From Thermoproteota archaeon (GTDB lineage Archaea; Korarchaeota; Korarchaeia; B14-G2), in the NCBI GenBank assembly GCA_037917675.1, contig JAVCBW010000024.1, positions 1 through 37,163 on the forward strand: 37,163 nt of DNA, read 5' to 3'. The stretch's first letter is position 1; each line of letters starts with the position of its first letter. Of this stretch, positions 30,745 to 35,187 are shown piece by piece. The position numbers and the translations under genes are program-made. Under the pieces are notes generated by a model. It saw nothing but the letters and a program-made list of their open reading frames with translations, had not been told where the DNA came from and made no database searches.

Positions 30745-31602
30745 TTAGCAGCTTCTGCTATGTAAGTTAGATCTGCTGAAAGGCCTTGGTAAGAGGTCCC
30801 TTATGCTGGCTATCTCCAGGCTTCCTCTGGTGTTAGCCATAGCGACCACAGCAGCTGGGCCATGCTCGTAGATGACCTGCCTGCATGCTCCACATGGGAG
30901 CGTGGGTTTCTCTGCTTCTGTCACGACAGCTATAGCCTTCACCTCACGCTCCCCCTCTGATATAGCCTTGAAGACTGCGACTCTCTCAGCGCATATGGTT
31001 AGGCCATAGGATGCATTCTCAACATTACATCCAGTGTATACTGCTCCACTAGACGCCAAGACAGCTGCACCAACCCTGAACCTAGAGTATGGGGCATAAG
31101 CTGCCTTCATAGCTTCTGCTGCAAGCGAGACAAGCCTGGGTAGCTTGGTGCTCACATCAACCTCCCTTGAGAAAACCCTTGTAAGCCATCCTATCCTGAT
31201 GAGAGAAGGCCTATCTTTGAAGGTATAGGGCTTTAAGTCCAGCACAGGTGAGCCATCCACGGCATCGACCCCTCTAACCTTGAGAGAGCCCCCTTCAACT
31301 GATAGAAGCTCCATTACAGTCAAGGCTATCCTGTTAGGTCTGTTAGGATGCCTAGTAGCAAACACGCCCCTAATCTCATGGTCATGGAGAGGCTTAACTA
31401 GCAGGCTCTCTTCTCTCGCCAGGTGGAATAGCCATAGGACTATTATATGTGAAAACCCATCTAGGTCTCTGAGCCCATCCCTGTACTCTGGATAGATGCA
31501 TATTTCGCCCTCAACCTGGCTGTAGTCCCATGGCACCTCCTCAACACGTTTAAATGGAGACTTTATCACGCCTATGGGTGATATCGAGGCTATCATGGTC
31601 AT
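30745..31602 (-). CDS. Fusion of TsaA/TrmO (YaeB-like) methyltransferase domain and cytidine deaminase
   Basis: N-terminal PIGVI, LDGFSHI, GVFATR.PNRPN.I, DAVDGSPVLDLKPY; C-terminal AYAPYSRFRVGAA, GCNVENASY, CAE and PCGACRQ; one uninterrupted frame. Confidence 0.88.
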   Translation of the reverse strand: MTMIASISPIGVIKSPFKRVEEVPWDYSQVEGEICIYPEYRDGLRDLDGFSHIIVLWLFHLAREESLLVKPLHDHEIRGVFATRHPNRPNRIALTVMELLSVEGGSLKVRGVDAVDGSPVLDLKPYTFKDRPSLIRIGWLTRVFSREVDVSTKLPRLVSLAAEAMKAAYAPYSRFRVGAAVLASSGAVYTGCNVENASYGLTICAERVAVFKAISEGEREVKAIAVVTEAEKPTLPCGACRQVIYEHGPAAVVAMANTRGSLEIASIRDLLPRPFSRSNLHSRSC

Positions 31603-32792: not shown

Positions 32793-33524
32793 TTACCCGC
32801 ATTCACTAGGCCACATGACATCGTGTTCTGCAGCCCTAGAAGTAGCTGCTGGAGCTCCTGTCTTGAAGATAGTAGCTGATATTGGGCTATGCATTATATA
32901 ATACCTGAGATAACTCTCAGCATCTATCCTCCGTACAGCTGTAGAGTCTACATCTACTATGTATATGTATGCCAGCTTTGCTTGCCTTAGCTCCTCAAGT
33001 GTTATCGGTGGGTTCTTGTAGTAGCTGTCGCAGATAGCCTTCAGCTCCAGGAGCTCCTTCACACTTCTCCTCTCTGGAGGCTTAACTAAGACTATAGGGA
33101 TCTGTAGGATGTGATATGGAGGGGTAGCTAGAGCAAAAACCTGTGCATGCCTGCTGTACCTCGCTATCTTAGCTGCTACCCTCGTGTACCTGTATGCTAT
33201 AGGGTCTAAGGCGTTCTCTGGTGGGACATATCCGGTCTCAACCTCGACTATGAGCACTTCACCACCTCTCCTAGCATACACGTCACAGACTAGGCTGCCA
33301 CCTAGCTCATGCTCGACATCTACATCATATCCTCTGGTGGCTAGATGCCAGGCACATATGGCCTCCATTACGCTGTGATTGCTCTTTAGAAGCCCTCTCC
33401 TATGCATATCCTTTAGCTTCCTAATGATCTTCTTAAGCTGGTAAGCAGCCCATGTACCTGAGCTAGGATGCAGCTTGCTGACAAGTATGTCAAGGTCTTC
33501 TTCGATATCCTTCAAGAATACCAC
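32793..33524 (-). CDS. Uncharacterised protein with PD-(D/E)xK nuclease-like motif
   Basis: HSVME..L..RGYDVDVE..CDVYARR..LIVEVETG pattern fits a restriction-endonuclease-like fold, with ExE in place of ExK. KIARYS and YYKNPP resemble a conserved TACK hypothetical family recalled from memory. Confidence 0.75.
   Translation of the reverse strand: MVFLKDIEEDLDILVSKLHPSSGTWAAYQLKKIIRKLKDMHRRGLLKSNHSVMEAICAWHLATRGYDVDVEHELGGSLVCDVYARRGGEVLIVEVETGYVPPENALDPIAYRYTRVAAKIARYSRHAQVFALATPPYHILQIPIVLVKPPERRSVKELLELKAICDSYYKNPPITLEELRQAKLAYIYIVDVDSTAVRRIDAESYLRYYIMHSPISATIFKTGAPAATSRAAEHDVMWPSECG
32794..32818. repeat. 25-nt exact direct repeat, copy 2
   Basis: Identical to 32515-32539; supplies the last codons (MWPSECG) and part of the stop of the 32793-33524 ORF. 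Confidence 0.95.
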
Positions 33525-33607
33525 CTGAAAACCTGGAGCTTTACTTTCAACATGTTATAAAGCTATTTAATGGGAAAAGCTAAAATGGGCTTCGAGAAGA
33601 TGATAGT

Positions 33608-33745
33608 GGGCTGGCGGAGCAGGCCGGTGTATGGGTTTCTGCTGAATCTCAGGGTAGCCGCAAGGCTACTCAGAGGCTCAGTGGGAACTCCCTGAGGTCT
33701 GAGGACCTTAAGGGAGGCTCATACACCAGGCTTCGACGCCAGCCC
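33608..33745 (+). ncRNA. Unassigned highly structured Y-shaped RNA candidate
   Basis: Terminal stem GGGCTGGCG/CGCCAGCCC, stem GGTGTATGG/TCATACACC, long arm capped by GGGTAGCC-GCAA-GGCTACTC, second arm TCCCTGAGGTC-TGAG-GACCTTAAGGGA. Many G-U pairs on the + strand. Confidence 0.7.
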
Positions 33746-35010
33746 TACTTCCCTGACCTTCTAAGTACAGCTTGAAGAGCAGCTGAGACAGCTAGTGAGG
33801 GCAGACTAGCACCTAGACTTGGCATGTACTTTACCAGTAGGAAGTAAGTTATCAGCCCTGCTACCCATGATGCTATCGACCTCCAGGCTACGTGTGGAGC
33901 CTTCTCATAGAACTCATCTAGCTCCACTCGCCCTCTCCTCACAATGAAGTACTCTGAGAGAGTTGTACCAAACAGTGGGATGAATGTTGCTCCTATCATG
34001 AGAAGGAACCACTCATACTCTGCTAGAGGAAGAGTGTAGGCTAATACTGCTGATACTGCTGTGATAGCTAGGACAAGCTTCCACTGCCTTAACCTAGGTA
34101 GCATGTTCTGTATCGAGACTGCTGAAGAATAGACGTCTGCAAACGCATTATCTGTCTCATCGACTAAGATAGCTATGAGAGCTAGTGTGCCCATGTATAG
34201 CTGTAGTATTGAAGCTGCTACAAACTCCTCTCCTGCCAGAGCAGCTAAAGCTGCACCTAAGGCATAGAACCACGTGTTAGCTGCTGTGTAGCCTAGTAGT
34301 GTACCGGTGAAACCAGAGGAGGGCTTCATGCTGAACCTGTTGTAATCAGATATCAGAGGCATCCATGAGATAGGCATCGCTATCACGAGGTCTAGTGCTA
34401 GAGGCCATGGCATGCCTCCCTGCCCACCTTCTACAGTCCATGTTGGAGCCTTAAGCACCTGGTATGTTATCCAAGCTGTTGATATGTAGACTAGCCATAT
34501 AGCGAACTTCTCAAGCCACTGCCTGATGACAGCAAGTGGCCCTCCTATCGCTAGGAGCACTACAAATGCTGAAAAGGCTGTTAGCCACACTAGTGTCAGC
34601 CCTGATCCTCCAGCTATCATAGCAGCTGCCTCAGCCATCACCTTGAGCTCGAAGGCTGTCCATCCTACTAGCTGAAGCACATTTAGGGCTGTAGCAATAT
34701 ATGAGCCTGACTTGCCGAACACTGGACGTAAGGAGACCATGGTTGGAACGCCATGTCTAGCTCCTATGACTCCAGCTGCAGCTAGCAGCGTGCTTCCGAT
34801 TATGGAGCCTATGAGAGAGACTACCAGCGCCTGCCTTAATGTGAGAGATGGAATCATTAGTGCTCCAGCTTGCAGCACTAGTATACCTACTCCGAGGCTT
34901 GACCACAGCACGAAGAGGTCTATGCCTCTTAGAACCCTAGCCTCTCGTGGAACCGGCTCAACCCCCCACTCAGGTGGAGCTCTAATCCAGGATCTCCTCT
35001 TACTAGGCAT
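33745..35010 (-). CDS. cytX: NCS1-family permease, putative hydroxymethylpyrimidine (thiamine precursor) transporter
   Basis: FVLWSSLGVG, NVLQLVGW..FE, AMPISWMPLISDYNRF and DETDNAFADVYS motifs; preceded by a TPP riboswitch. Confidence 0.87.
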   Translation of the reverse strand: MPSKRRSWIRAPPEWGVEPVPREARVLRGIDLFVLWSSLGVGILVLQAGALMIPSLTLRQALVVSLIGSIIGSTLLAAAGVIGARHGVPTMVSLRPVFGKSGSYIATALNVLQLVGWTAFELKVMAEAAAMIAGGSGLTLVWLTAFSAFVVLLAIGGPLAVIRQWLEKFAIWLVYISTAWITYQVLKAPTWTVEGGQGGMPWPLALDLVIAMPISWMPLISDYNRFSMKPSSGFTGTLLGYTAANTWFYALGAALAALAGEEFVAASILQLYMGTLALIAILVDETDNAFADVYSSAVSIQNMLPRLRQWKLVLAITAVSAVLAYTLPLAEYEWFLLMIGATFIPLFGTTLSEYFIVRRGRVELDEFYEKAPHVAWRSIASWVAGLITYFLLVKYMPSLGASLPSLAVSAALQAVLRRSGK

Positions 35011-35046: not shown

Positions 35047-35061
35047 GCGGTAAGGAAGCGT

Positions 35062-35166
35062 GCGGGCACGCTCCCTACGCCGGCATTACCCGGATCAGGT
35101 TCAAGGGGTCGGCGGCGCGATAGCCGCCCTCTCAGCCAGGTTGCCCCCAGCTCCCCCGGTGCCCGC
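35062..35166 (-). ncRNA. TPP riboswitch (THI element) aptamer
   Basis: Minus strand: P1 GCGGGCAC/GTGCCCGC, GGGG, CTGAGA, ACCC-TTGAACCTGAT-CCGGGTAATGCCGG-CGTAGGGA; matches the TPP consensus core. Confidence 0.95.
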
Positions 35167-35187
35167 TAGATAGCCTACAGGGGCGTA

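Follow-up and report, generated by a model that had tools for sequence, protein, structure and literature searches.

Introduction

Apart from the universal RNAs and the guide RNAs, archaea are to our knowledge home to only a small number of recognized classes of structured non-coding RNA. A number of RNAs are encoded beside their protein partner: Y RNA beside Rsr/Ro60, omega-RNA beside TnpB, HEARO beside IscB, and bridge RNA beside the IS110 recombinase. RNA–protein pairs such as guide RNAs with their nucleases or Y RNA with Ro have repeatedly been a source of new biology and tools. Type III toxin–antitoxin systems pair an RNA antitoxin with an endoribonuclease toxin. The archaeal K-turn RNAs (box C/D and H/ACA) are associated with the protein L7Ae, which binds sites such as a tandem G-A beside a terminal stem.

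The locus described here resembles each of these systems in part. It consists of a structured RNA of about 140 nt and a divergent gene for a PD-(D/E)xK-fold protein, and it has relatives in several archaeal lineages. In common with RNAs that are encoded beside a partner, it shows conserved adjacency and co-occurrence of a structured RNA with one protein family. It differs from those systems in that the protein has a PD-(D/E)xK fold and the RNA is divergent, not co-transcribed; the family RNA carries no transposon ends, we saw no guide segment in it, and the Rfam models of those systems do not match it. Like type III toxin–antitoxin systems, the locus combines an RNA with a nuclease-like gene and is patchily distributed. 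Unlike those systems, however, the family RNA has no tandem repeats, the two genes are divergent instead of forming one operon, and the protein has no match in PADLOC. The archaeal K-turn RNAs are similar in that they are small, in their terminal stem with adjoining G-A and A-G, and in the fact that the family RNA, too, is multi-copy in some genomes. In contrast to the K-turn RNAs, the family RNA has a far greater length with nearly all of it paired, lacks C/D and H/ACA boxes as well as any Rfam match, and, in the register supported by covariation, contains a 6 × 5 internal loop instead of a 3-nt bulge.

Results and Discussion

The RNA lies near one end of the window, by which we mean the whole stretch of 37,163 nucleotides that was analyzed. 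The relevant features are listed below by position in the window. MFE denotes the minimum free energy fold, G000 is the genome of the window, and G001 is the sole other species of the genus in the comparison.

32793–33524 (−): divergent gene for a 243-aa protein predicted to have a PD-(D/E)xK fold, the candidate partner (from the AlphaFold model and its structural neighbours)
33563–33587 (+): promoter block with the BRE/TATA-like stretch GGAAAAGCTAAAAT (33573–33586), located about 25 nt before the 5′ end of the RNA
33608–33616 (+): P1, 5′ strand, GGGCUGGCG, forming nine perfect pairs with 33737–33745
33617–33622 (+): core internal loop, 5′ strand, GAGCAG (R-A-G-Y-A-N in the family), in register with the family models and with the consensus of the family alignment A7
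33621–33636 (+): P2, 5′ strand, pairing with 33717–33733 in the MFE
33637–33686 (+): arm A of a three-way junction with a GCAA tip at 33660–33663 (from the MFE; the arm is kept in G001)
33688–33716 (+): arm B with the conserved tip GUCUGAGGAC (from the MFE and the comparison with G001)
33717–33733 (+): P2, 3′ strand, with terminal AGGCUU (from the MFE and both-side changes in G001; GGCUU is invariant in the family)
33732–33736 (+): core internal loop, 3′ strand, UUCGA (UUAGA in the family), a T-loop-like pentanucleotide (from A7)
33737–33745 (+): P1, 3′ strand, CGCCAGCCC, the final base of which overlaps the stop codon of a convergent cytX-like gene

An earlier note on this DNA, made from the letters alone, had described the element as nested stems with a loop of opposed GA dinucleotides and a Y shape with two arms. 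The stretch from 33608 to 33745, read directly, matches this description, and the MFE confirmed the layout. GA at 33617–33618 stands opposite GA at 33735–33736 and adjoins P1, and 33626–33634 forms nine pairs with 33719–33727, the final one being G-U. The plus strand of 33600–33755 reaches an MFE of −97.2 kcal/mol, compared to a mean of −59 kcal/mol for shuffled sequences (z = −8.80), and none of 200 shuffles was as stable. The 143-nt fold from 33605 to 33747 contains 59 pairs, including nine G-U pairs, and leaves 25 nt unpaired. The plus strand at 33605–33747 is a real and tightly folded structured RNA element.

The plus-strand asymmetry pointed out in the earlier note also held up. The same stretch of the minus strand (33600–33755) folds with −74.1 kcal/mol, which leaves a gap of 23 kcal/mol in favor of the plus strand, and the G-U pairs of the plus strand turn into A-C on the opposite strand. 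Still, the minus strand folds well in its own right (z = −5.98) and the element abuts the cytX stop codon, both of which speak for an element of the minus strand (the leader of the nuclease-like gene, or for the cytX-like gene a terminator or 3′ UTR), or else for a DNA palindrome bound by protein. We consider this reading extremely unlikely in view of the stability gap and the nine G-U pairs, and of four properties of the wider family that is described below: one U-G pair is invariant in 32 of 32 members, the RNA keeps one orientation to the protein gene throughout, the plus-strand unit has promoter-like and T-run signals on its flanks, and among 80 family loci a single one has cytX next to the RNA. 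On the basis of this last count we also rejected a linkage of cytX to the RNA.

G001 provides an independent view of the same element. Both genomes share the order of cytX-like permease gene, RNA, and divergent protein gene, and the RNA of G001 adopts the same fold (−102.6 kcal/mol, z = −8.12) at a sequence identity of 77%. Among 48 consensus pairs, eight differ on both sides and eight on one side with pairing kept. Covariation, the lack of which would have spoken against the earlier note, is thus present. Four both-side changes fall in the P2 helix. The stem of arm B has three pairs with both-side changes, and its 10-nt tip is identical. Arm A itself is kept, but its tip reads GCAA in the window and UAUC in G001. 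The GNRA loop had been taken as a sign of selection on RNA; since G001 does not keep it, this loop is not conserved and provides no argument for selection.

Whereas the RNA itself is just 77% identical between G000 and G001, the 25 consecutive nucleotides at 33563–33587 are the same in both. The BRE/TATA-like stretch that had been noted about 25 nt upstream lies inside this block. The block is probably also the promoter of the divergent protein gene, the start of which lies 83 nt from the RNA on the opposite strand. TATA-like A/T-rich hexamers occur within 45 nt upstream in 23 of 33 family members, and the window RNA has such a block as well. A run of four or more T follows P1 in 25 of the 33; the window RNA has no such run. 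A scan for bacterial-type promoters and terminators gave no match, as expected for an archaeon. We infer that the window RNA is an independently transcribed small RNA gene. An ORF of 41 aa (33570–33695, +) shares sequence with the promoter and with the 5′ half of the RNA. A coding role for this ORF was rejected, since its copy in G001 stops after 17 codons.

No family of Rfam 15 (tRNA, 5S, SRP, RNase P, C/D, H/ACA, ribozyme, riboswitch) matches the element, either at gathering scores in a search of the whole window or at E ≤ 10 in 33400–33950. Eleven loci of the wider family were equally without a match at E ≤ 1 or E ≤ 0.5, and ARAGORN found no tRNA at the element. Covariance models can overlook divergent members, as our own models R2 and R3 do with the window RNA (see below), and a very divergent representative of a known class, for example a ribozyme, a guide-type RNA, or a fragment of SRP or RNase P RNA, may have been missed in this way. 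These negative searches, together with the RNase P RNA elsewhere in the genome and the lack of a guide-like variable segment between paralogues as judged by eye, make such a case very unlikely. Specifically, a minimal RNase P RNA was rejected, because a canonical archaeal RNase P RNA is encoded on another contig (159 bits).

The sole Rfam match in the window is a full-length TPP riboswitch (35054–35167, −; 68.9 bits). It precedes the cytX-like hydroxymethylpyrimidine transporter gene (33745–35010, −; TIGR02358, 306.9 bits, just below the cut-off), and we read this pair as a transporter gene under the control of an archaeal TPP riboswitch.

In the 1.78-Mb assembly the element occurs once, and the next matches are chance similarities of 14–29 nt. 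This agrees with the view that it is not a multicopy sequence, and a MITE or other multicopy repeat was rejected, as only the element itself matches in the assembly. A literature search by keyword and by motif found no paper that describes the window RNA. No mention of the RNA family was found in the available part of 10.64898/2026.10.21.760802. With neither an Rfam match nor a paper, the proposal of an undescribed archaeal non-coding RNA stands, and the RNA family and its pairing with the protein family appear undescribed.

The neighboring gene had been assigned to a PD-(D/E)xK-like protein on sequence features, and the structural evidence leads to the same assignment. The 243-aa protein has no Pfam family match and only a weak match to YraN, no sequence relative in the PDB, and no match in PADLOC. 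A protein atlas places it in unnamed archaeal clusters only, with PDDEXK_14 (0.85) as a lead. For the AlphaFold model (pLDDT 85.6, pTM 0.82), Foldseek ranks the CdiA-CT nuclease domain (4g6v_A, E = 8.7e-5) first, ahead of SfsA, XisH, MspJI, AF1548, and Cas4. A structure search independent of Foldseek returned 3dnx (Z = 9.2, rmsd 2.7, 105 aligned), the XisH-like 2okf (Z = 8.6), AF1548 (1y88, Z = 8.4), AF2093, and NucS (2vld, Z = 6.8), and then restriction enzymes and the nuclease domains of Can2/Card1. The best of these structural neighbours are PD-(D/E)xK proteins. Residues E71, D81, E94, E96, and K119 are the same in all of 22 diverse sequences. The mark of the superfamily, an alpha-beta core that bears acidic residues on strands 2 and 3, is thus present, with D81, E94, and E96 among the invariant positions. 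As modeled, the protein core (residues ∼47–204) is a PD-(D/E)xK fold with a putative nuclease activity.

At least 558 relatives of this protein are present in the genome collection, in metagenome-assembled genomes labeled Bathyarchaeota, Brockarchaeota, Thermoproteota, Nitrososphaerota, Marsarchaeota, and others. The distribution of the protein family is patchy, and the gene is single-copy. In one genome of the sister genus (G007:C128:4420–5033) it is broken by TAG and matches in two pieces. Farther along the minus strand of the window, an ORF at 30745–31602 shows an unusual fusion of a TrmO N-terminal tRNA-methyltransferase domain with a cytidine/deoxycytidylate deaminase domain.

The search for a wider RNA family started from 80 fetched protein loci, for which the upstream 350 nt were folded. 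Many of these loci contain very stable hairpins on the divergent strand. The hairpins have a common base, consisting of a terminal stem with R-A-G-Y-A-N-GCU on the 5′ side and GGCUU-A-GA-C on the 3′ side. Three models were built. Model R1, made from G000 and G001 only, found no match beyond the genus, either in 40 class genomes or in the 79 other protein loci. Model R2, made from 16 family sequences without G000 and G001, detected the RNA at 32 of 80 loci (E ≤ 0.002), where it lies upstream of the protein gene and divergent from it. When the 80 upstream regions were scanned with a relaxed motif, which missed eight loci that R2 finds, only L016 was added. With L016, the RNA lies beside the protein gene in 33 of 80 loci. 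Model R3, made from 32 members, recognizes three independent ones (L142, L143, and L114). R2 gave no match in 27 genomes of the phylum of the window, and a strict DNA pattern of the G000-type base matched only the contig of G001 in a metagenome collection.

Covariation supports the base of these RNAs. In the R2 alignment the base helices are 92.2% paired, as opposed to 73.6% in shuffles, 12 of 19 pairs show both-side changes, and slid controls collapse. In P1, pairing holds in 95.8% of cells, and both-side changes affect five of six modeled pairs; in P2 they affect 7 of 13 pairs. GGCUU is invariant in all 32 of 32 members. UUAGA occurs in most members of A7, and UUCGA in L017 and L020. The family is defined by P1 and the adjoining internal loop (5′ R-A-G-Y-A-N, 3′ U-U-A/C-G-A), followed by a helix GCU.../...GGC. 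Beyond this base the RNA is variable, with the Y shape in the window and long hairpins or a pseudoknotted hairpin elsewhere. A subtype of 18 sequences has a pseudoknot and three more helices. These findings refine two points of the earlier note. The Y shape is present in the window and in G001, but it is lineage-specific, as only the base is family-wide. Likewise, the RNA belongs to no database family, but it does not stand by itself and is part of a wide unannotated family.

The subtypes show further particularities. In alignment A8 of the pseudoknotted subtype (for example, L079 2756–2898), the pseudoknot joins an apical loop C-R-R-C-U with a 3′ bulge G-G-Y-Y-G; two variable pairs of this pseudoknot covary, and no cell is unpaired in 18 sequences. 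Variants of 240 nt (L096 1501–1740, L098 1501–1741, and L101 1501–1738) contain an extra domain before the 3′ base motif. Up to five family copies occur per genome (G071), and G143 has two matches in tandem. By eye, we saw no guide-like variable segment between paralogues.

How does the window RNA relate to this family? Its base has the hallmark of the family, a P1 stem with GAGCAGGC on the 5′ side and GGCUUCGAC on the 3′ side. Compared to the base motif (P1, 5′ RAGYANGCU, 3′ GGCUU(A/C)GAC), the window sequences GAGCAGGCC and GGCUUCGAC contain one mismatch in 18 defined positions, and P1 scores 7/7. The C variant of the 3′ motif that is present in the window also occurs in L017 and L020. R2 aligns 33602–33751 full length and in register with 7.3 bits (E = 0.045 in 4 kb), a score that ranks below a spurious match of 9.1 bits. 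R3 gives 8.7 bits (E = 0.056) as its top match with filters off, and no match with default filters. Since the family models score the window RNA weakly, membership rests on motif and position. A genome-wide motif scan (at most one mismatch, P1 at least 6/7) produced six matches, compared to 0–1 in ten shuffles. Only the match in the window is structured (z = −9.2); the other five have z values from −0.9 to −3.5, and the motif alone is therefore not very specific. The window RNA does have the position and orientation of the family, divergent and upstream of the gene for the 243-aa protein, and its middle differs completely from the other subtypes. We think it likely that the window RNA is a divergent member of the family by homology.

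The conserved core beside P1 is a 6 × 5 internal loop with R-A-G-Y-A-N opposite U-U-A-G-A, and the family (A7) keeps the G-A and A-G positions of this loop that adjoin P1. Covariation in A7 at pairs 28–285 and 27–286 supports the helix G24–C289. A standard K-turn would need G20–C289 and is not supported; in the G24–C289 register there is no 3-nt bulge, and four extra letters lie on the non-bulged strand. A double T-loop was rejected as well. Its core, as given in PMC3664808, consists of two five-letter loops with conserved AG..A and UG..A, a pattern that R-A-G-Y-A and U-U-A-G-A lack, with G2 and A5 together in neither. Judged by sequence pattern alone, UUAGA/UUCGA fits the letters of a single T-loop, U-U-N-R-A beside a helix, and only its third position varies. 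In three dimensions a T-loop is marked by a reverse Hoogsteen pair between positions 1 and 5 and by a stacking gap.

A hairpin of the large ribosomal subunit contains similar letters. G006, G048, and G178 each contain a single copy of the 15-nt stretch GGCUUAGAAGCAGCC, and G004 contains it with one mismatch. The stretch lies inside LSU rRNA genes in L140 (∼1501–1515, −) and L141, and we take this hairpin to be helix 43 of the GTPase-associated centre. The rRNA context in L140 and L141, GGAGGUAGGCUUAGAAGCAGCC, resembles both GGAGUAGGCUU on the 5′ side and AGGCUUAGA on the 3′ side of the family core. The archaeal T-loop hairpin and the family core have in common the order GGC, UUAGA, AGCA, and a strand that pairs back to GGC. 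In the family, by contrast, the loop is split by P1 and has two extra letters, and the remainder of the RNA bears no likeness to LSU rRNA.

Hence one could read the core, GGC-UUAGA-[P1]-R-AGYA-N-GCU, as a mimic of the rRNA hairpin. The RNA would then, much like an RNA antitoxin, be a decoy for or an inhibitor of a factor that recognizes this hairpin, possibly the neighboring nuclease. The resemblance on both strands, the presence of the stretch inside LSU rRNA genes, and the fact that the third letter of UUAGA is the sole varying position in the RNA would agree with such a mimic. So would the patchy protein family, the fold neighbours of which include the PD-(D/E)xK toxins CdiA-CT, TseT, and PA3907. 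The likeness is short, however, and was noticed after the fact, and the entire helix P1 interrupts the loop in the RNA. The antitoxin part is further weakened by a protein that is single-copy and has no match in PADLOC, and by toxicity or an action on the ribosome being suppositions. We judge the mimic unlikely and treat the rRNA likeness as a lead only, although it would be compatible with a partnership of RNA and protein.

Genome comparisons bear on such a partnership. We drew 121 genomes evenly and unselected from the class of G071. In this sample 30 genomes contain the RNA and 66 the protein, with the protein present in 28 of 30 RNA-positive and in 38 of 91 RNA-negative genomes; related genomes are not independent, and these figures overstate the co-occurrence. 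In 20 of the 30 RNA-positive genomes, the best RNA match is divergent, on the same contig, and within ∼520 nt of the protein gene. Adjacency and co-occurrence are given as counts without a P value, the genomes being related. Among 40 genomes from the class of G078, four contain an RNA match, and two of the four (G236 and G228; L142 and L143) have the divergent RNA beside the protein gene. The adjacency recurs in at least three class-level groups. Linkage to the neighboring gene, as the earlier note had proposed, is therefore conserved far beyond the genus (33 of 80 loci, 20 of 30 genomes), but it is frequent and not obligatory.

The exceptions fall on both sides. Among 47 genomes without the RNA at the protein locus, R2 finds one to five copies elsewhere in 19. 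We fetched 30 such extra RNA loci, and a protein homologue adjoins the RNA in only two of them; the other neighbors are varied (VIT1, DUF211, HSP20, CBS), and no tRNA gene lies beside the extra copies in 17 loci. The sister genus g2 has the protein in 18 of 21 species. None of the protein-bearing species has the RNA upstream, and neither R1 nor R2 detects it genome-wide. Another 38 genomes, those of the 121-genome sample that are protein-positive and RNA-negative, show the same pattern. Absences of the RNA are weak evidence, as even the window RNA escapes R2 and R3.

These exceptions are what one would expect of a stand-alone small RNA that works with a general archaeal RNA-binding protein, for example L7Ae, and that lies next to the nuclease-like gene as a remnant of an old shared bidirectional promoter region. 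The RNA occurs at many sites without the protein, in up to five copies per genome, the protein occurs without a detectable RNA in g2, and the tandem G-A beside the terminal stem of the family RNA is of the kind bound by L7Ae. On the other side, the protein is much more frequent in RNA-positive than in RNA-negative genomes, divergent adjacency holds in two thirds of the former, and an adjacency that recurs in at least three class-level groups would be hard to keep without selection. As to L7Ae, the register supported by covariation has no 3-nt bulge for a standard K-turn. We regard a stand-alone RNA as a possible but doubtful reading.

The repeated back-to-back placement in several archaeal lineages instead suggests that RNA and protein work together. 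The possible partnership with the PD-(D/E)xK-like protein that the earlier note had raised is supported by the conserved linkage and the co-occurrence, and on the likeliest reading the window RNA is a partner or regulator of the nuclease-like protein. In our preferred reading, to which we assign a probability of roughly one half, the locus produces a transcribed small RNA, the base of which is a protein-binding platform, and this RNA is a cofactor, scaffold, or inhibitor of the neighboring nuclease-fold protein. The RNA gene and the PD-(D/E)xK-fold gene would be read back-to-back from a short common promoter region. The conserved basal loop of the RNA may then form the platform to which a protein binds. 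Bound in this way, the RNA could serve the nuclease-like protein as a cofactor or scaffold, or inhibit it.

Conclusions

The RNA family described here is absent from Rfam 15 and combines strong covariation with a sharply conserved core and a reproducible genomic partner. This partner is an uncharacterized protein with a predicted nuclease fold that is spread over several uncultured archaeal lineages. We can also imagine, as a rather unlikely extension of the partnership, a new archaeal ribonucleoprotein in which the conserved RNA base imitates the LSU rRNA T-loop hairpin (GGCUUAGA..AGCA) and thereby inhibits the nuclease by mimicking its substrate or directs it to ribosome-related targets. Both components are small, with ∼140 nt for the RNA and ∼215 aa for the protein, which makes direct testing in vitro feasible. 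If the extension just described is true, the pair would represent an RNA-controlled nuclease without a described counterpart.
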